In this document: in pieces, positions 1,052 through 59,642 of the stretch
Layout: each line of letters begins with the position of its first letter
Position numbering within the stretch: the stretch's first letter is position 1
Origin: Candidatus Limnocylindria bacterium
Lineage (GTDB): Bacteria; Chloroflexota; Limnocylindria; QHBO01
Reading direction: 5' to 3'
Length of the DNA: 64,000 bases
NCBI GenBank assembly: GCA_036397815.1
Contig: DASWIE010000003.1
Coordinates: forward strand, 277-64,276
Translations under genes and position numbers: made by a program
Notes under the pieces: model-generated
Told to the model about the DNA's origin: nothing
The model's database searches: none
The model's input: only the letters and a program-made list of their open reading frames with translations

Positions 1052-2887
1052 ATGGCGATTGACTCAGACGAGGTCCGTACTGAAGCATCCGAGCTCCTCG
1101 ATGCGGGTGCGCACGACCCGCTCGACACGATGCGTCACTCCGCGGCCCACGTCATGGCAGCCGCCGTGCTCTCGCTCTTTCCGGGGGCCAAGCTGGGCAT
1201 CGGTCCCGCCATCCGGGACGGCTTCTACTACGACTTCGACCTCCCTCGGGCGCTGACTCCTGCCGACCTCGAGGCGATCGAGGAGGGCATGCGCGCGCAG
1301 GTGGCCGCCGACCTGCCGTTCGAGCGGACCGAGCTCGACCGCCCCGCCGCGCTCGAGCAGCTGGCGAGCGACGGCCAGGACTACAAGGTCGAGATCGTAC
1401 GCGACCTCCCTGAGGAGGACGCGCGGGTCGTCAGCTTCTACCGGCACGACGGCTTCAGCGACCTGTGCCGGGGACCGCACGTGGCGTCAACCGGCAGGCT
1501 GGGACCCTTCAAGCTGCTCAACTCGGCAGGCGCCTACTGGCGCGGCGACGAGAAGCGACCGATGCTGCAGCGAATCTACGGCACGGTCTGGGAATCCCAG
1601 GAGGACCTGGATCGATACCTGTGGCGCCTGGAAGCGGCGAAGAAGCGCGACCACCGCAAGCTGGGGCGCGACCTGGACCTGTTCAGCTTCCATCCCGAGT
1701 CACCGGCTGCGCCGTTCTGGCATCCGCGTGGCATGGCGCTGTGGCGGGCGCTCGAGGACTGGTCGCGCGAGGTCCGCCGCGACGGCGGGTTCTCTGAGGT
1801 GCGTACTCCGATCGTGGTGCGCAAGGAGCTGTGGGAGACATCGGGCCATTGGGAGCTGTACCAGGACAACATGTTCGTTCTGGACGACTACGATCACGTC
1901 TCGGGCCTGAAGCCGATGAACTGCCCGGAGGAGATGGTCATCTATAAGACCACCTCCCGCTCCTATCGCGACCTGCCCATGCGCTTCTCCGACTACTCGA
2001 ACCTGATGCGTCGCGAGCGAACCGGGGCGCTGGCCGGCATGTTCCGCGTCCGGCAGCTGACCCAAGACGACAGCCACGTCTTCTGCCGCGAGGACCAGGT
2101 GGTCGACGAGGTGAACCTGGCCCTGTCGCTCGTTCAGAAGCAGTACGCCCCGTTCGGGCTGAAGCCGACCTTCAAGCTGGCCACGCGGCCGGAGAAGCGG
2201 CTCGGCTCCGACGAGTTCTGGGAGATGGCCGAAGGGAAGCTGCGGGAGTCGCTCGAGGCGGGCGAGATTCCCTACACGGTGGATCCTGGCGGCGCGACCT
2301 TCTACGCACCCAAGATTGACGTCTACGTCGAGGACGCGCTGGGCCGCGAGTGGCAGATGCCGACGATTCAGCTCGACTACCAGCTCCCGCAGCGCTTCGA
2401 CCTGGAGTACCGCGCGGCCGATGGTGGCTTCGAGCGGCCGGTGGTGATCCACTACGCCATCTACGGCAGCTTCGAGCGCTTCATCGGGGTCATCACCGAG
2501 CACTACGCGGGAGCGTTTCCCGCCTGGCTGGCGCCGGTGCAGGCGATGGTGATCCCGATCGCCGACCGGCACGTCGAGTACGCCGCGCGGGTGCGCGACG
2601 AGCTGATCGCGGCCGACCTGCGCGCCGAGGTAGACGACCGCTCGGAGCGGATGCAGGCCAAGCTGCGGGACGCCCAGGAGCAGAAGATCCCCGTCATGCT
2701 GGTGGTGGGGGATCGGGACGTCGAGGCTGATGCTGTCAGCCCGCGGCTGCGGACCGGCGAGTCGATGCAGGGCGTGCCGCTGGGCGAGTTCGTGGCCGAC
2801 CTGCGACGCCGGGTCGCGGCGCGCGAGCTCTGGCCCTACGCCGAGGATGGGGACAGCGGCGATAGCGCCGGCGTTGCCGCCACCTAG
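1052..2887 (+). CDS. thrS: threonine--tRNA ligase, lacking an N-terminal TGS domain
   Basis: 611 aa. Editing-domain HxxxH (RHSAAHVMA) sits near residue 28, followed by class II core motifs and an anticodon-binding tail. The stop TAG lies inside repeat copy c1. Confidence 0.95.
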   Translation: MAIDSDEVRTEASELLDAGAHDPLDTMRHSAAHVMAAAVLSLFPGAKLGIGPAIRDGFYYDFDLPRALTPADLEAIEEGMRAQVAADLPFERTELDRPAALEQLASDGQDYKVEIVRDLPEEDARVVSFYRHDGFSDLCRGPHVASTGRLGPFKLLNSAGAYWRGDEKRPMLQRIYGTVWESQEDLDRYLWRLEAAKKRDHRKLGRDLDLFSFHPESPAAPFWHPRGMALWRALEDWSREVRRDGGFSEVRTPIVVRKELWETSGHWELYQDNMFVLDDYDHVSGLKPMNCPEEMVIYKTTSRSYRDLPMRFSDYSNLMRRERTGALAGMFRVRQLTQDDSHVFCREDQVVDEVNLALSLVQKQYAPFGLKPTFKLATRPEKRLGSDEFWEMAEGKLRESLEAGEIPYTVDPGGATFYAPKIDVYVEDALGREWQMPTIQLDYQLPQRFDLEYRAADGGFERPVVIHYAIYGSFERFIGVITEHYAGAFPAWLAPVQAMVIPIADRHVEYAARVRDELIAADLRAEVDDRSERMQAKLRDAQEQKIPVMLVVGDRDVEADAVSPRLRTGESMQGVPLGEFVADLRRRVAARELWPYAEDGDSGDSAGVAAT

Positions 2888-3028
2888 CAATGTGGTTACT
2901 GCTAAGCGGCTATTTCGGGCGGGTAGTCACACTTCTACGGCCTACTCACGCTCAACAAATACTCATGCGAGACGCCGCGCGCCCGGTTGTGTCGCTTACA
3001 ACCAACGTGGTTACTGAGAGACGGGAAC
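2873..3028 (+). repeat. palindromic MITE-like repeat, canonical copy c1
   Basis: Left arm GTTGCCGCCACCTAGCAATGTGGTTACTGCTAAGCG. Right arm CGCTTACAACCAACGTGGTTACTGAGAGACGGGAAC. Same architecture as c2-c4. Confidence 0.85.
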
Positions 3029-3053
3029 TGGGCCGAAAACGGGGCTGGCGCAC

Positions 3054-7640: not shown

Positions 7641-8000
7641 ATGCCTCGAGTCAAGCGCGGCGTCGCCGCGCACAAGCGTCACAAGCGGCTGCTCGCCCAG
7701 GCCCACGGCCGGCGCGGCACGCGCTCAACGCTGATCCGTCCGGCGCGAGAGGCGCTCTTCCACGCGCTGGTCTACGCCTACCGCGACCGCAAGGCCCGCA
7801 AGCGCGACATGCGCCGCCTCTGGATCGAGCGCATCAACGCCGCCTCGCGACAGCACGGCCTGCCATATGGCCGCTTCATCGCCGGCCTGAAGTCCGCCGG
7901 CGTGGAGGTCGACCGCAAGGTGCTGGCCGACCTGGCCGTGCGTGAGCCGGCAGCCTTCGGCAAGATGGTCGAGACCGCCAAGGCCTCCTTTACCACCTAG
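7641..8000 (+). CDS. rplT: 50S ribosomal protein L20
   Basis: 119 aa, [18 protein letters not shown]...[18 protein letters not shown]. Confidence 0.95.
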
Positions 8001-8022
8001 CCGGCGTCCTCGAGACGCCGGC
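8000..8022 (+). terminator. hairpin directly after the rplT stop
   Basis: GCCGGCGTC-CTCGA-GACGCCGGC, a perfect 9-bp stem. No U-tract. Confidence 0.4.
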
Positions 8023-8202
8023 GCCCATCGGCCCTGCTCCAAATCGGAGCGGGGTCGTTTGTTTTCCCCGATCATCTGAGGGACCGATGCGATCAAGACC
8101 GCGTACCAGCGCCAACGCCACCGCAGCCAGGGGTCTCTGTGCTGCTGTGCGAGTGTGCGGCCGTGCCGCACAACCGGCCTCTGGTAATGCGAGGGCCGCG
8201 TC

Positions 8203-9280: not shown

Positions 9281-11725
9281 ATGCGGGTGCCGCTCTCCTG
9301 GCTGCGCGAGTACGTTCCGGTCGAGCTCGCCCCCGAGGCGCTCGCCGAGCAGCTGACCCTGCGCGGGATGGAGGTGAGCGGCATCGAAGTTTCGGGCGCG
9401 GACTGGACCGATGTCGTGGTCGGGCGGCTGCTCAGCGTGGATCGGCACCCGAACGCCGACAAGCTGTGGCTCACCACGGTGGACGCCGGCGGTCCTGAGC
9501 CGCTGCGCATCGTGTGCGGGGCTGACAACGTGCGACCCGGGCAGCTCGTGCCGGTGGCGCGGGTGGGGGCGATGCTGCCCGGCGGCCGGCGCATCGAGCG
9601 CAGCAAGATCCGCGGGGTCGAGTCGGAGGGGATGCTCTGCTCGCCGATCGAGCTGGGGCTCGGCGACGACGCGGAGGGGATCCTGATCCTGGGCACCGAC
9701 GACGAGCATCCGATCGGGGCGGACCTGGCGCCGCTCGTCGGCGAAGTGGTGCTCGACGTGGACGTCAAGCCGAACCGCGGCGACGCGCTCTCCATGGTCG
9801 GGCTCGCGCGCGAGGTTGCGGCCTTCACCGGCGGACAGCTGCGCGTGCCGGAGGCATCGGTCAGTGAGGATCCGGCGCTGGATGCCTCCGACAGGGTGAG
9901 CGTCACGATCGAGGACGCGGTCGGCTGTCCGCGCTTCGCCGCCCGCTGGTTCGAGCGCGTCGCCAACGGGCCGTCGCCGGCCTGGATGCAGCAGCGACTG
10001 CTTGCGGCCGGAATGCGGCCGATCTCCGCGGTAGTGGACGTCACGAACTACGTCATGCACGAGCTGGGACAACCGATGCACGTGTACGATGCCGGTTCGG
10101 TGCCCGATGGCCGGATCGTGGTGCGGCGGGCACGCCCTGGCGAAGAGCTCGAGACCATCGACCACGAGAACCGCGTCCTGGACGACCGGATGCTGGTGAT
10201 CGCCGACCGCGAGCGGGCGATCGGCCTGGCGGGGATCATGGGCGGCGCCTCGACCGAGGTCACCGCCGCCACGACGCGCGTGATCCTCGAGTCGGCGATC
10301 TTCCACGGGCCGACCATTCGCAACGCCGCGCGGCGGCTCGGCCTCCGATCGGAGGCGAGCCTCCGCCACGAGAAGGGGATCAGCCACTCGCTGCCGCGAT
10401 ACGCGGCGGACCGCGCCGCACGCCTGATCGCCGAGATCACCGGCGCGGCGGTGGCCACAGGTATTGTCGACAACGATCCCGCTCCGAAGCCGGCGGACGT
10501 GGTCGAGCTCGAGCTGGCACGGACAACGCGGCTGCTGGGGATCCCGCTCGAAGCCGGGCAGGTCGGAGAGCTGATCACGCCGTTGGGGTTCGAGGTCAAT
10601 CCGCGCGGCGCGGACGGCGTCAGCGTCACCGTCCCGAGCCACCGGCTGGACGTGGTGGCGCCCGAGGACGTGGCCGAGGAGATCGCGCGAGCCTACGGCT
10701 ACGATCGGATTCCCGGCCGCCTGCCCGAGCCGCAGCTGCCGCCATTCCGCGCCGATCCCTCCGAGCCGCGACACCGGGTGCGGCGGATCCTGGCCGGGCT
10801 GGGGCTGGACGAGGTGGTGACCCACGCGCTGATCGGGCCAGCGGACCTCGAGCGCAGCGGCTACGACCCGAACGACGAGGGCAACGTGCGGGTGGCGAAT
10901 CCGCTGGCCGAGCAGCACAGCATCCTGCGGCCGGCCCTCTACCCGTCGCTGCTGGCGGCGCTGGCGGAGAACGTCCACCAGCGGCGGACCGATCCGTGGA
11001 TCTTCGAGGTCGGCAAGACGTACTGGATGAGCGGCGCCAACGGCCCGCCCTGGGCGGAGACAGCGGGAACCGGTCGGTACGAGGCCTGGCACGTGGGTAT
11101 CGCGCTGCTCGGCCCAAGGCTGCCGCGCTCGCTCGAGGTGCGCGGTGAGGCGCGGGACGCGGACGTGGCCGAGCTGAAGGGAATCGTGGAGGCGCTGCAC
11201 GCGGCGCTCGGCGCGCCGCCGCCCGGATTCCGCGCCGAATCGGCCGAGGAGCGCCACCCGCACCTGCACCCCGGCCGCGCGGCACGCCTGGTGAACGCCG
11301 CGGGTCGAGCCTACGGCAGCGTTGGCGAGCTGGACCCGCGCATCGCCTCCGCCTGGGACCTGCCGGGCCGGCCGGTGATTGCCGCTGTCAACCTGCCGCA
11401 GCTCTTCGAGCTGATCCGCCCCGAGGTGCGCCTCTCCGCCCTACCCGCCGCCCAGCCGATCGACCGCGACCTGGCGGTCGTTCTGGACGAAGCGACACCG
11501 CTCGGTGAGCTGCTGCGCATCGTGCGGGCCAGCGCCGGACCGATGCTGGTGAGCGCTCACGCCTTCGACGCCTACCGAGGGCCGCAGGTCGGGGCGGGAT
11601 CGGTGTCCTACGCGATCGCCCTGCGCTTCCAGCCCGATGAGCCCGCGGACGAGAAGGGAGTCGAGCGCGCCATGAACCGCATCCGCGGCTCGGTCCAGCA
11701 CCACCTGGACGCCACCATCCGCTGA
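9281..11725 (+). CDS. pheT: phenylalanine--tRNA ligase beta subunit
   Basis: 814 aa; MRVPLSWLREYV..., tRNA-binding domain (HPNADKLW), B3/4, B5 and FDX-ACB domains. Confidence 0.95.
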   Translation: MRVPLSWLREYVPVELAPEALAEQLTLRGMEVSGIEVSGADWTDVVVGRLLSVDRHPNADKLWLTTVDAGGPEPLRIVCGADNVRPGQLVPVARVGAMLPGGRRIERSKIRGVESEGMLCSPIELGLGDDAEGILILGTDDEHPIGADLAPLVGEVVLDVDVKPNRGDALSMVGLAREVAAFTGGQLRVPEASVSEDPALDASDRVSVTIEDAVGCPRFAARWFERVANGPSPAWMQQRLLAAGMRPISAVVDVTNYVMHELGQPMHVYDAGSVPDGRIVVRRARPGEELETIDHENRVLDDRMLVIADRERAIGLAGIMGGASTEVTAATTRVILESAIFHGPTIRNAARRLGLRSEASLRHEKGISHSLPRYAADRAARLIAEITGAAVATGIVDNDPAPKPADVVELELARTTRLLGIPLEAGQVGELITPLGFEVNPRGADGVSVTVPSHRLDVVAPEDVAEEIARAYGYDRIPGRLPEPQLPPFRADPSEPRHRVRRILAGLGLDEVVTHALIGPADLERSGYDPNDEGNVRVANPLAEQHSILRPALYPSLLAALAENVHQRRTDPWIFEVGKTYWMSGANGPPWAETAGTGRYEAWHVGIALLGPRLPRSLEVRGEARDADVAELKGIVEALHAALGAPPPGFRAESAEERHPHLHPGRAARLVNAAGRAYGSVGELDPRIASAWDLPGRPVIAAVNLPQLFELIRPEVRLSALPAAQPIDRDLAVVLDEATPLGELLRIVRASAGPMLVSAHAFDAYRGPQVGAGSVSYAIALRFQPDEPADEKGVERAMNRIRGSVQHHLDATIR

Positions 11726-22529: not shown

Positions 22530-22662
22530 GTCGCCGTGGTGTGCACTAACTGGCCTGCGGTGTCGTGTGAGCTGCCTACGCAGGCGGCGTGTGCGCTACG
22601 GCCTTCCTGACCGAGCGGACGCGAATAGTGCCTCCACGGTGTGCGTAAGGGAGGGCGCGGAA
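22530..22662 (-). repeat. possible decayed repeat copy at the 3' end of the truncated HTH-nuclease paralog
   Basis: Minus-strand read: TTCCGCGCCCTCCCTTACGCA...GGCACTATTCGCG...CGTAGC...CTCACACGAC...CCAGTTAGTGCACACCACGGCGAC. This is collinear by eye with c3 (TTCCTGTCTCCTAGCAAT...GTTACTGCTAAGCG...CGTAGC...TTCACGCTCAG...CCAGTAACCAGGTTGCTGATAGACGGC). Confidence 0.3.
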
Positions 22663-22929
22663 GGTCATCGGCCCACTAGGCGCGTCGCCGTAGTCTCGCG
22701 GACGTCGGAGCCACGCAAGCGCCGCACCTCGATCGGACGCGAAGCGTGCAAAGAGGTCCGGGTGCGTGCGCACGTGACGCCGCGACGTCGATGAATCCGC
22801 CAGCACTAGGAGTGGCACCACTGTCCTTCGGCGCCAACCTTGCTCGCGTGCAACGCGACCCGCCACTCGCACCTTCACATCCAGCCGGCCCAGCAGATCC
22901 TGCATCTTCGGCCCGACTCGACCGGCCAT
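22576..22929 (-). pseudogene. truncated paralog (C-terminal half only) of the HTH/PD-(D/E)xK-like protein encoded at 43840..44664
   Basis: The 117-aa ORF aligns with residues ~135-240 of the 274-aa protein: MQDLLGRLDVKVRVAGRVAREQGWRRRTVVPLLVLADSSTSRRHVRTHPDLFARFASDRGAALAWLRRP versus VQDLHSAMARKRRIVPSLLTKELGWRPMTVGQLLVVGEASAQRRLVDRHSEIFAATFAQRGREARAWLAHP. Only 58 nt separate it from the upstream gene, leaving no room for the HTH or nuclease core. Confidence 0.6.
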
Positions 22930-43781: not shown

Positions 43782-43788
43782 TTGCCGA

Positions 43789-43819
43789 TGCTAAGCCGCA
43801 GGAAAGGCGCTGGTAAGGC
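43789..43819 (+). promoter_or_regulatory. pair of direct half-sites resembling the repeat inner arm, upstream of the HTH-nuclease gene
   Basis: TGCTAAGCC (43789-43797) and CTGGTAAGGC (43810-43819), compared with repeat inner arms CTGCTAAGCG / CTGGTAAGCG. Short motifs, so chance is not excluded. Confidence 0.25.
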
Positions 43820-43839
43820 TCGCGGCGCACGATGCCTCG

Positions 43840-44664
43840 ATGGACGATCTCAGGGTCGGGCTGGTGCTTCGTGCCCTTCGCCGCCGACTCGGCTGGCGGC
43901 AGCTGGATGTCGCAGCGCGTGCCGGCGTGAGCCAAAGGCTGGTGTCGCTGGCGGAGGCCGGCCAGCTTGAACGGCTCACGCTTCGCAGCCTGCGCGCGAT
44001 CGGCCGCGCTCTCGAGGTTCGCGTCCCTGTCGAACCGCTCTGGCGCGGCGGTCAGCTTCCTCGGCTTCTCGACGGGGAGCATGCAGCGCTCGTGAACGCT
44101 GTGGCCGCGATCATGCGCCGCCGTGGCTGGCAGATCCTCGTGGAGTACACGTTCAACCACTTCGGCGATCGAGGATCCGTAGACCTGGTGGGGTGGCATC
44201 CGCAACATCGGGCATTGGTCTTGGTGGAGGTCAAGAGCCGGATCACCGACGTTCAGGACCTGCATTCCGCAATGGCGCGGAAGCGCCGGATCGTGCCCAG
44301 TCTTCTGACCAAGGAACTTGGCTGGCGGCCCATGACCGTTGGCCAGCTGCTGGTCGTAGGTGAAGCGAGCGCACAGCGGAGGCTTGTCGACCGCCACAGC
44401 GAAATTTTCGCAGCGACCTTCGCGCAGCGAGGACGGGAGGCGCGCGCCTGGCTGGCTCACCCGGCCGGAACGCTATCGGCCCTCTGGTTCCTGTCTCCTA
44501 GCAATGGCGTTACTGCTAAGCGACGGGAACGGCTGCCGCAGCGGATTCGTAGCCAGAATTCACGCTCAGCAAGCCCCGCGCGACGGCCTCAAGCACCGCC
44601 CAAGTCGCTTACCAGTAACCAGGTTGCTGATAGACGGCAAGCGGACGCTCCGGCGTCAGAATAG
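43840..44664 (+). CDS. XRE-type HTH + PD-(D/E)xK-like (restriction-endonuclease-fold) protein; the C-terminal ~60 codons are encoded by repeat copy c3
   Basis: 274 aa. HTH is LRRRLGWRQLDVAARAGVSQRLVSLAEAG. Putative nuclease core is GDRGSVDLVGW-x10-LVLVEVKS. The ORF enters c3 at codon ~216 (WFLSPSNGVTAKRR...) and stops 23 nt past it. Confidence 0.75.
   Translation: MDDLRVGLVLRALRRRLGWRQLDVAARAGVSQRLVSLAEAGQLERLTLRSLRAIGRALEVRVPVEPLWRGGQLPRLLDGEHAALVNAVAAIMRRRGWQILVEYTFNHFGDRGSVDLVGWHPQHRALVLVEVKSRITDVQDLHSAMARKRRIVPSLLTKELGWRPMTVGQLLVVGEASAQRRLVDRHSEIFAATFAQRGREARAWLAHPAGTLSALWFLSPSNGVTAKRRERLPQRIRSQNSRSASPARRPQAPPKSLTSNQVADRRQADAPASE
44487..44641 (+). repeat. palindromic MITE-like repeat, canonical copy c3
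   Basis: GTTCCTGTCTCCTAGCAATGGCGTTACTGCTAAGCG ... CGCTTACCAGTAACCAGGTTGCTGATAGACGGCAAG. Confidence 0.85.
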
Positions 44665-49876: not shown

Positions 49877-51007
49877 GTGATGGCGCCCATCTCGTTTACC
49901 TTCCGCACCACAGCCGTAGGCCGGGCGCGGCTGGGGACGCTCATCACCCGCCACGGGTCGGTCGACACACCGCAGTTCATGCCGGTCGGCACCCAGGCGA
50001 CGGTCAAGAGCCTCACCCCCGCCGACCTGCGCACGGCGGGCACGCAGATCATCCTGGCCAACACGTACCACCTCTCGCTGCGGCCCGGGCACGAGCGCAT
50101 CGCTCGGCTTGGTGGGCTGCATCGGTTCATGGCCTGGGATGAACCGATCCTGACCGATTCGGGTGGATTCCAGGTCTTCAGCCTGGCCCACCTCGGCCTG
50201 GTGGACGACGACGGGGTCACCTTCGCCAGCCACCTTGACGGGTCGTCACAGCGCCTCACCCCCGAACGGGCCGTCCAGATCCAGGAGGCGCTGGGCAGCG
50301 ACATCGCGATGGCCTTTGACCAGCTCGTCGACTCGACGCTCTCGGCGGCCGAGGTCGCGATCGCGATGGAGCGAACCCACCGCTGGGCTGAGCGCTGCCT
50401 CGCCGCCCGCACGCGCTCGGACCAGGCGCTGTTCGGGATCGTGCAGGGCGGTGTCGACGCGGAGCTGCGGCGTCAGAGCATCGGCGCGATCGCCGCGCTG
50501 CCCTTCGACGGCATCGCCATCGGCGGCCTCTCGGTGGGGGAGGGCAAAGCCGAGATGGAGGCGACGCTCGACGTGGTGGCCGATGCGCTCGGCCACGATC
50601 CGCGGGTCCGGTACCTGATGGGCGTCGGTTCGCCCCTCGATTTCTTCACCGCGGTCGAGCGTGGCATCGACCTCTTCGACTGCGTCCTGCCGACGCGCGT
50701 CGCGCGCAACGGGCAGGCCTGGACCAGCGAGGGGAGGATCAACCTGCGGAACGCGCGTTTCCTGGACGACCCGGCGCCGCTCGACCCCACCTGCGACTGC
50801 GAGGCCTGCCGCAACCACTCCCGCGCCTACCTGGCGCACCTGTTCCGGGCCGAGGAGCTGCTCGCGTATCGCCTCGCCTCGGTCCACAACGTCACCTATA
50901 CTCTCGACCTGATGCGGCGCATCCGTGGCGCCCTTGCCGACGGGTCGTTCGCATCGCTGCAGGACACCGTTTCGGCGCGCTGGAAGCGTCGTGACGAGGT
51001 CCGGTAA
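49877..51007 (+). CDS. tgt: queuine tRNA-ribosyltransferase
   Basis: 376 aa; TPQFMPVGT, LTDSGGFQV and the zinc site CDCEAC...H. Confidence 0.95.
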   Translation: MMAPISFTFRTTAVGRARLGTLITRHGSVDTPQFMPVGTQATVKSLTPADLRTAGTQIILANTYHLSLRPGHERIARLGGLHRFMAWDEPILTDSGGFQVFSLAHLGLVDDDGVTFASHLDGSSQRLTPERAVQIQEALGSDIAMAFDQLVDSTLSAAEVAIAMERTHRWAERCLAARTRSDQALFGIVQGGVDAELRRQSIGAIAALPFDGIAIGGLSVGEGKAEMEATLDVVADALGHDPRVRYLMGVGSPLDFFTAVERGIDLFDCVLPTRVARNGQAWTSEGRINLRNARFLDDPAPLDPTCDCEACRNHSRAYLAHLFRAEELLAYRLASVHNVTYTLDLMRRIRGALADGSFASLQDTVSARWKRRDEVR

Positions 51008-51017
51008 GCCGTCGCTA

Positions 51018-51036
51018 ATGGGCCGGTAAGGCCCAT
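51018..51036 (+). terminator. hairpin after tgt
   Basis: ATGGGCC-GGTAA-GGCCCAT, 11 nt after the stop. No U-tract. Confidence 0.3.
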
Positions 51037-51084: not shown

Positions 51085-51252
51085 ATGGCCAAGGGTCGAG
51101 ATCGACCACGTCACCAGGAGAAGCGAAAGCCGAAGGCCAAGGCGCCCAAGGTCCCGCCGCCCACATCGGGCTCGACCTATGAGCCGCCGGCGTCGGTCGA
51201 GTTGATCAAGCCAAAGCGCAAGCCGCGCTGGGAACCCGGCGAGGAGGAGTGA
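51085..51252 (+). CDS. possible small basic protein (55 aa), below the ORF-track length cutoff
   Basis: ATG 51085 preceded by GGAGG with an 8-nt spacer. Encodes [55 protein letters not shown]. Third-codon positions are strongly G/C. Confidence 0.4.
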
Positions 51253-59301: not shown

Positions 59302-59426
59302 GGGCCTCTCCAACGCCCCCCGGGATGATGCGGATAGGTATGGCACACCATGGTGGGGGATGGCGAGTGACCGATAAGTACCAGTCGCCGTTCCGAGGGG
59401 CGCCCGGCGATCGCCTCGAGGGCCCG

Positions 59427-59580
59427 CTTTCTGTCTCTTAGCAATACCGTTACTGCTAAGCGAGCAAACGAGTGCCGCAGGCAAGATGGCTCCCTCGTCC
59501 ACGCTCAGCGGGGACGGTCCGATAGGCCAATCGGGACTCGCGATTCGCTTACCAGTAACCAGGTTGCTGAGAGACGGGAC
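59427..59580 (+). repeat. palindromic MITE-like repeat, canonical copy c4
   Basis: CTTTCTGTCTCTTAGCAATACCGTTACTGCTAAGCG ... CGCTTACCAGTAACCAGGTTGCTGAGAGACGGGAC. Confidence 0.85.
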
Positions 59581-59642
59581 GGGGCTCCATCCTCTGCGCC
59601 GAGGCGTGCTCGAAGCCGCCTTCGGCTACGATTGACGGACAG

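Follow-up and report, generated by a model that had tools for sequence, protein, structure and literature searches.

To our knowledge, repetitive extragenic palindromic (REP) sequences and their hairpin-forming doublets (REPINs), together with the REP-associated tyrosine transposases (RAYTs), are the only well-described persistent and vertically inherited bacterial repeat population that is tied to a dedicated single-copy enzyme. Repeats resembling miniature inverted-repeat transposable elements (MITEs), such as Correia/NEMIS, ERIC, RUP and the Rickettsia palindromic elements, either lack a linked gene of their own or depend for mobility on a DDE-type insertion sequence (IS) transposase acting in trans. 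In the IS200/IS605 group, the TnpB omega-RNA is a structured element overlapping the 3' end of a gene, and the palindrome-associated transposable elements (PATEs) are dispersed, short, non-autonomous derivatives with hairpin ends. Here we describe a 64,000-nt stretch of a Candidatus Limnocylindria genome (Chloroflexota; contig DASWIE010000003.1), hereafter the window, in which a REPIN-like repeat of about 157 nt forms the coding 3' end of a gene for a helix-turn-helix (HTH) protein with a predicted PD-(D/E)xK nuclease domain. We propose that this HTH-nuclease may be the cognate partner of the repeat. The literature searched contained no paper describing such a pairing of HTH-nuclease and repeat, or repeats in Limnocylindria.

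The window contains four copies of the repeat, of which c2 has the opposite orientation to c1, c3 and c4:

2874-3031, plus strand: c1, a solo copy that gives thrS its last four codons and stop codon

28425-28571, minus strand: c2, a solo copy 8 nt past the stop codon of the uricase gene (minus strand), convergent with a GNAT gene

44488-44644, plus strand: c3, the gene-linked copy, with L arm at 44488-44525, centre CACGCTCAGC at 44561-44570 and R arm at 44603-44640

59428-59584, plus strand: c4, a solo copy between the divergent GGDEF-EAL (minus strand) and hflX (plus strand) genes

The element consists of two 38-nt inverted arms around a spacer of about 80-84 nt (80-82 nt in 11 of 15 copies), and each arm is made up of an outer TTCCYGTC, a 17-bp palindrome and an inner TG[C/G]TAAGCG box. 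The arm core GTTACTGNTAAGCG has seven matches where 0.19 are expected, and the palindrome, YAGYAAY-N3-GTTRCTG, is confined to the arms within the window (16 strand hits at 8 sites, against 0.6 expected); seven of the ten occurrences of TAAGCG in the window also fall inside arms. The spacer centre CACGCTCAG is conserved in most copies, and a CACGCTC centre lies 36 nt past the L arm in 13 of 17 copies and 26 nt past it in L019 (L numbers denote the locus fragments analysed together with the window), with no match in L008, L009 and L021. Across the window nothing reached the gathering threshold of the Rfam 15 covariance models, and around c4 nothing matched at E<=1; no tRNA or tmRNA was detected, and scans around the HTH-nuclease gene revealed neither sigma-70 promoters nor intrinsic terminators. 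A strict right-arm pattern found 3 true sites in GTDB genome representatives and 6 in JGI metagenomes, too few for a repeat census; among the GTDB species representatives the strict arm pattern matched only the metagenome-assembled genome (MAG) JBOGTC01, at 3 sites.

The gene that carries c3 and the parts of its product are as follows (pLDDT, predicted local distance difference test):

43840-44664, plus strand: HTH-nuclease open reading frame (ORF), 274 aa, with XRE-type HTH, PD-(D/E)xK nuclease and basic tail

43855-44025, plus strand: XRE-type HTH (aa 6-62), with Pfam HTH_3 and PDB profile matches and pLDDT 95-99

44062-44499, plus strand: PD-(D/E)xK nuclease domain (aa 75-220), with E102 at 44143, D115 at 44182, E130 at 44227 and K132 at 44233

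44500-44661, plus strand: disordered basic C-terminal tail (aa 221-274), encoded by the repeat element, pLDDT 50-57

A preliminary description of this DNA had read the 274-aa ORF as an XRE-type HTH followed by a D...ExK pattern, and both parts of that reading were borne out. Pfam HTH_3 matches aa 10-61 at 27.1 bits (cutoff 23), which places the protein in the XRE family; sequence-profile matches in the PDB are to HTH proteins only (HigA2, HipB, C-proteins such as C.BclI, and DdrO), and family members hardly differ in the recognition helix, VSQxLVS. The AlphaFold2 model, based on 109 homologs, has pLDDT >95 for aa 1-220 and a disordered remainder. Modelled alone, the nuclease domain reaches pLDDT 94.6 and shows an alpha-beta-beta-beta-alpha-beta core (helix 2-20, strands 24-33, 36-46 and 51-58, helix 64-86, strand 92-100). 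Its top Foldseek matches in the PDB (E<0.03) are almost all PD-(D/E)xK nucleases, the best being the restriction-like endonuclease (RLE) domain of R2 (E 3.4e-5), and AF1548, Card1/Can2, McrC and XisH are further structural neighbours. Across the 109 homologs E102, D115 and K132 are invariant and E130 is present in at least 90%. The preliminary description is thus confirmed as to fold and catalytic motif: the models give the 274-aa protein a PD-(D/E)xK fold with high confidence, the motif is conserved among the homologs, and nuclease activity is predicted. Scores for UPF0102/YraN stay below the cutoffs (Pfam PF02021, 20.9 bits against 23.6; NCBIfam YraN, 22.6 bits against 109), and NCBIfam, PADLOC and PHROGs returned nothing past generic HTH matches for the full protein.

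More than 490 homologs were found, mostly 245-260 aa long, and at E<1e-30 the family has 291 cluster representatives, with no curated family for the nuclease part. The few homologs with a name carry the labels Candidatus Limnocylindria or Chloroflexota; the preliminary description had placed similar proteins in Actinobacteria, where, as far as seen, the family does not occur. A protein 100% identical to the window's product (P0001) is present in independent assemblies, and the neighbouring ThrS is likewise 100% identical to a Limnocylindria MAG protein. The gene order amidohydrolase / HTH-nuclease gene / NTP_transf_3 / ruvB ... queA, tgt, recA, recX is kept in relatives at 80%, 76% and 59% protein identity. 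Altogether the gene stands in three synteny contexts: that of the window, L001, L002 and L029, a second conserved one in L006 and L027, and that of L028. Within the window, tblastn found one full copy and one truncated paralog, and no extra full-length copies were seen. From these comparisons the HTH-nuclease gene appears to be a real, syntenic and vertically inherited gene of Candidatus Limnocylindria (Chloroflexota). The truncated paralog (22576-22929, minus strand, 117 aa; tblastn match to aa 138-208, E 4e-6) has neither the HTH nor the catalytic core and lies directly 5' of an EF-G-like gene on the minus strand. On the short metagenome contig L013 (40-721) a homolog matches in two frames (aa 21-113 and aa 101-247) and is either a frameshifted pseudogene or the result of an assembly error.

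The repeat copy c3 begins at codon 217 of the gene (the F of WFLSPSNGVTAKR) and stops about 18-21 nt before the ORF stop, and the last ~58 codons are accordingly repeat sequence, as had been noticed earlier; in orthologs the stop codon and the bases following it also belong to the element. The earlier observation that the TAG ending thrS in c1 recurs out of frame in c3 is correct as well (2885-2887 corresponding to 44499-44501). A complete element is found at the 3' end of the gene in L001, L002, L029, L006/L027 and L028 and on the short contigs L013 and L021, which bear the gene, at 51-86% identity, and every homolog examined down to 51% identity has the element in this position. In the orthologs the stop codon is without exception part of GCTTA[C/G] in the R arm. 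Homologs share the tail motif WFLSxxNGVTxKR...PQRIR...RSA, and close homologs end in VAYQ*, which is the R arm GTCGCTTACCAGTAA read in another frame. The tail in the window is 15 aa longer than that of the orthologs ending at GTCGCTTACCAGTAA, because the c3 spacer has 80 nt rather than 81 nt. Since the element accompanies the gene down to 51% identity and in three synteny groups, its position is not an accidental fusion; the preliminary description of a gene physically fused to a repeat copy holds for the presence of c3 at the 3' end and not for a recent fusion. The gene-linked copy did not insert recently; it is an old component built into the gene family.

Across loci, GC content at third codon positions (GC3) is 0.25-0.58 in the L-arm codons versus 0.73-0.83 in the gene body (0.42 versus 0.75 in the window), and third codon positions agree with those of orthologs at 67-92% in the L arm versus 50-59% in the body. 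The largely non-coding R arm is 89% identical to orthologs, compared with 74-80% for the gene body. These patterns point to selection acting on the nucleotides of the gene-linked element.

Arm sequences also surround the gene in some lineages. In L006 and L027 arm copies lie on both sides of the HTH-nuclease gene, and the group B lineages have, in addition to arm copies on both gene sides, tandem arm units with a 50-nt period. In L027, a segment of 2.7 kb with xdhC, an alpha/beta hydrolase gene and the HTH-nuclease gene is enclosed by three tandem L-type units (7917-8066) and two tandem R-type units (10746-10830) in inverted orientation, both sets with the same 50-nt period; these arrays look like those of bacterial interspersed mosaic elements (BIMEs) or like a multi-site transposon end.

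Each solo copy has the arm variant typical of the genome in which it lies. In MAG JBOGTC01 the variant TACGCG/CGCGTA occurs in the gene-linked copy (L006) and in two solo copies (L008 and L009), and in the genome of L028 a very different arm sequence is common to the gene copy and two solo copies, with an unchanged architecture (84 nt from TAAGCG to CGCTTA, same centre). The arms thus appear to co-evolve with the gene-linked copy. Covariation was tested on a gapless alignment of 20 copies, in which 81.5% of cells are compatible with L-R pairing and both partners vary in 18 of the 34 pairs; none of 500 shuffles (0.206 +/- 0.015) came up to the covariation score of 0.308, and slid controls stayed at <=0.124. 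Local hairpins within each arm were considered as the only structure and rejected: they pair to 83-87%, but the central L-arm pair is mismatched in 12-13 copies, at a position that pairs perfectly across the arms, and the long-range model carries far more covariation than the local palindromes. Folding z-scores of the long stem are -5 to -6 in c2, c4 and solo copy 1 of L028, and the spacer alone has no conserved fold (mean z -0.17). Among the non-Watson-Crick cells on the gene-sense strand, G.T outnumbers A.C by 54 to 26, a weak hint that this strand folds.

The solo copies are subject to turnover. The site of c4 is occupied in the window and in L023 (HflX 96% identical), and the same intergenic site is empty in L024 (92%) and L025 (83%); in L030 (ThrS 91% identical) c1 is missing and the stop codon of thrS directly adjoins the following gene. 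When c4 of the window is compared with that of L023, identity is 74-87% in the arms, 64% in the spacer and 43% in the flanks; as the arms are kept while the flanks diverge, this solo copy is under constraint. Terminal inverted repeats and presence/absence polymorphism (c4, c1) are both features of MITEs. Five of nine solo copies lie 0-25 nt past a stop codon in sense orientation, and L009 and c4 are located upstream, not downstream, of genes.

Several single copies show further detail. In c1 the end of thrS (2874-2887), comprising the last four codons VAAT and the stop, comes from the element, and ThrS orthologs have patchy ends that are either element-type (xAT* or xAS*) or unrelated. The solo copy at L012 2241-2258 lies 14 nt past the stop of a long unannotated ORF (622-2241) and retains about 17 nt of gene-like sequence left of its L arm, 12 of 17 being identical to L002; this left flank points to the gene-linked copy as the likely source of solo copies. 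A conserved block GGTATGGCACA...GATAAGTACCAG (59335-59385) in the GGDEF-EAL/hflX intergenic region is present in the window, L023, L024 and L025, with or without c4, and is probably a promoter or operator.

The inner-arm box recurs at two promoters, and the preliminary description had already pointed to two half-sites upstream of the gene that resemble the inner arms. These half-sites, TGCTAAGCC (43789) and CTGGTAAGGC (43810), are present, conserved in orthologs, and part of a triple box:

43789-43822, plus strand: triple TAAGC box with 11-nt phasing (TGCTAAGCCGC AGGAAAGGCGC TGGTAAGGCTCG) in the 58-nt spacer upstream of the HTH-nuclease gene, a candidate operator

51002-51035, plus strand: second triple TAAGC box (GGTAAGCCGTCG CTAATGGGCCG GTAAGGCCC) between tgt and the operon of a small ORF, recA and recX

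The unit of the triple promoter box is the inner-arm box TG[C/G]TAAGCG. A triple box lies 37-54 nt upstream of the gene in L001, L002, L029, L006, L027 and L028, hence in all three genomic contexts, and weaker versions occur even in the distant L005 and L007. The box upstream of recA is almost identical to it in unit and phasing and is conserved in L001 (17110), L002 (17208), L023 (1356) and L029 (11362). A position weight matrix (PWM) scan of ~600 kb matched only ahead of genes of the HTH-nuclease family and ahead of the recA operon; sites of both types went into training the PWM, and its independent content is the match in L023 and the absence of other matches. An untrained regular expression had already singled out the recA-upstream site in L029. 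Autoregulation through the triple box, together with control of recA, would be the simplest reading of this sharing. A GGTAAG[CG] pair after tgt had been taken for a terminator-like hairpin, a candidate dropped when the pair was recognised as part of the conserved triple box. The TTGCCGA at the start of the upstream spacer, said earlier to resemble the repeat termini, is replaced by GGGGCGA, CGGTCGA and TGGCGGA in orthologs, and the resemblance is probably due to chance. Immediately before recA, and overlapping it, is an ORF for a lysine- and proline-rich protein of 55 aa (51085-51252, plus strand), which every syntenic relative shares and for which Pfam records no family. In L005 (9890-10000), a 29-nt direct repeat, CGGGATAAGCGGCGCGCAAGCGTCCGATG, which contains TAAGCG, stands at -110 and -28 upstream of the distant homolog (46% identity).

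We tentatively propose, at odds somewhat short of even, that the HTH-nuclease is the cognate partner of the REPIN-like element, its HTH reading the TAAGCG box and its nuclease acting on the arm stem or hairpin. The proposal draws on the linkage of gene and repeat, selection on nucleotides, co-evolution of the arms, constrained turnover, the shared box, the nuclease fold and the flanking copies in L006 and L027. In such a mechanism the HTH would read the TAAGCG box, and through the triple boxes of this type at the gene's own promoter and at the recA operon the protein would regulate itself and be tied to the DNA-damage response. The target of the nuclease domain would be the stem or hairpin into which the arms fold, and the repeats would be maintained or spread as RAYTs do for REPINs, with an enzyme of the restriction-endonuclease fold in their place. 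Of the two possibilities raised in the preliminary description, that of a regulator or nuclease binding the repeat arms gains indirect support from linkage, arm co-evolution, the common box and the intact nuclease fold, the binding itself being conjectural.

Anatomy, conservation, arm covariation, insertion polymorphism, protein fold and motif sharing are shown by the data, and DNA binding, cleavage, mobilisation and regulation of recA by the protein are inferred. Several observations weigh against the proposal. The distant homologs L005 and L007 (46-49% identity) have no recognisable arms, and in the window and its orthologs the region 5' of the gene holds only a relic of the element or nothing, with no L arm in the window. 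No target-site duplication is visible in the flanks of the nine solo copies, the empty sites being too diverged for exact junctions. The box shared by arms and promoters is only 8-9 nt long, and the 17-bp arm palindrome is absent from the window's own HTH-nuclease promoter; another regulator may bind the triple box, or the box could be an RNA motif of the 5' leader. Arm covariation is equally expected of an RNA hairpin unrelated to the protein. What is said here of copy number and of transposases, RAYTs included, refers to a sample of the 64-kb window plus locus fragments.

It is possible, although somewhat unlikely, that the protein does no more than control transcription, that of its own gene and of a damage regulon including recA, with the nuclease fold serving as a sensor or repair module and the repeat being independent of it, so that the TAAGCG of the arms is coincidental or a decoy. 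The confinement of the triple phased box to the regions that precede the HTH-nuclease gene and the small ORF-recA-recX operon fits this, as do the proximity of the gene to ruvB, tgt, recA and recX in one synteny group and the conservation of recognition helix and box across the family, even in homologs without arms. It leaves unexplained why the element is kept at the 3' end of the gene in three genomic contexts, why arm copies flank the gene in L006 and L027, and why the box persists in the arms of lineages whose arm sequence has otherwise changed completely. A distinctly unlikely alternative is that the element acts as RNA, a hairpin of the 3' or 5' untranslated region that stabilises, terminates or processes transcripts, was spread by some transposase, and has a merely historical link to the gene from whose 3' end the family arose. 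The solo copies placed shortly past stop codons in sense orientation, the excess of G.T, the low z-scores of the long stem and the covarying arms agree with it; the lack of an Rfam match and of a terminator-like T run, the unstructured spacer and the passage of ribosomes through the stem in gene-linked copies do not, and L009 and c4, which lie upstream of genes, and the shared promoter box remain unaccounted for.

The other possibility raised in the preliminary description, that 43783-44641 is an autonomous IS-like transposon with an HTH-PD-(D/E)xK transposase whose MITEs are the short copies, is very improbable. The inverted tandem L-type and R-type arrays around the gene-bearing segment in L027 and the box motifs resembling the inner arm in the upstream spacer are what one might expect of it. 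Yet the same neighbours surround the gene in relatives at 59-80% identity, so that the gene is not mobile and this interpretation is rejected; in the window the region 5' of the gene lacks an L arm, the full L arm lying instead inside the gene, and the only extra copy is the truncated paralog. An autonomous insertion sequence would be a transposase flanked by terminal inverted repeats in several mobile copies, and we found a fixed syntenic position and one full tblastn copy. Barely credible, finally, is the idea that a MITE happened to insert at the 3' end of a gene to which it bears no relation. Other copies overlap gene ends too, c1 providing the stop of thrS, and the Rickettsia palindromic elements are a precedent for in-frame repeats, but the same arrangement in all homologs examined down to 51% identity, in three synteny groups and with covarying arms, refutes it.

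If the HTH-nuclease is indeed the partner of the repeat, it would be a second case, on an unrelated nuclease fold, and the repeat-partner lifestyle would have evolved more than once; an uncharacterised family of HTH-nuclease proteins would gain a function, and Limnocylindria, a poorly studied class, would be opened to work on repeat dynamics. A still wider scheme, which we regard as unlikely in its entirety, is that of a second, independent class of partnership between host and repeat: a domesticated HTH-PD-(D/E)xK protein, in the place of a HUH transposase, would recognise and process a REPIN-like hairpin whose master copy is kept in the 3' end of the protein's own gene. Through the TAAGC box the protein would also be wired to its own promoter and the recA operon, and the dispersed hairpins could be sensors or decoys in a LexA-independent damage response. 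The collapse of GC3 over a structured element in a coding 3' end is in itself a clean example of dual constraint, and the common box before recA makes the protein a testable candidate for a DNA-damage regulator in Limnocylindria.

Among known systems, the R2 RLE and the Holliday-junction-resolvase-like nucleases (YraN/UPF0102, AF1548) provide the best structural matches and share the conserved D...ExK, but identity is 9-17% and there is no reverse transcriptase or zinc knuckle here, the similarity being one of fold and not of family. Autoregulated damage-response repressors of the XRE or LexA type, such as DdrO of Deinococcus and LexA, resemble the protein in that a candidate operator is common to the promoter of an HTH protein gene and to recA; here, in contrast, the operator would consist of three direct units phased at 11 nt and not of a palindrome, the C-terminus has a nuclease fold instead of a protease-cleavable dimerisation domain, and regulation is a proposal. 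As in the IS200/IS605 and PATE group, an element overlaps a coding 3' end and short hairpin-ended copies are dispersed, but TnpA and TnpB (RuvC-like) are lacking, no omega-RNA-type match was found in Rfam, and the gene is not mobile. With MITE-like repeats the element shares its length of about 150 nt, terminal inverted repeats, intergenic placement near gene ends, occasional in-frame position and insertion polymorphism; it differs in that no target-site duplication was seen and in that its interior varies in sequence but keeps a fixed length and centre motif.

The closest comparison is with REPIN-RAYT, for which we used the features given in three reports (PMC3337134, PMC5581495 and bioRxiv 10.1101/2022.05.22.493013). 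The protein has an XRE-type HTH and a PD-(D/E)xK nuclease domain, not an IS200-like Y1/HUH transposase, and no Y1_Tnp is listed among the called genes of the fetched loci, a statement that applies to those loci only. Because the defining Y1/HUH transposase is absent from the examined loci, the pair of HTH-nuclease and repeat is not a member of the REPIN-RAYT system; the full element is moreover embedded in a coding 3' end, its arms are longer (38 nt), and it has no GTAG box. REPINs reach tens to hundreds of copies per genome; the count here is four copies in 64 kb. The likenesses to REPIN-RAYT are these: two inverted palindromic units with a spacer give the element a REPIN architecture, the gene looks single-copy and vertically inherited in the loci covered and is linked to the repeats at its 3' end, with repeats on both sides in L006 and L027, some lineages have BIME-like tandem arrays, and the repeat sequence is lineage-specific and appears to co-evolve, each unit combining a conserved short box with a variable palindrome.

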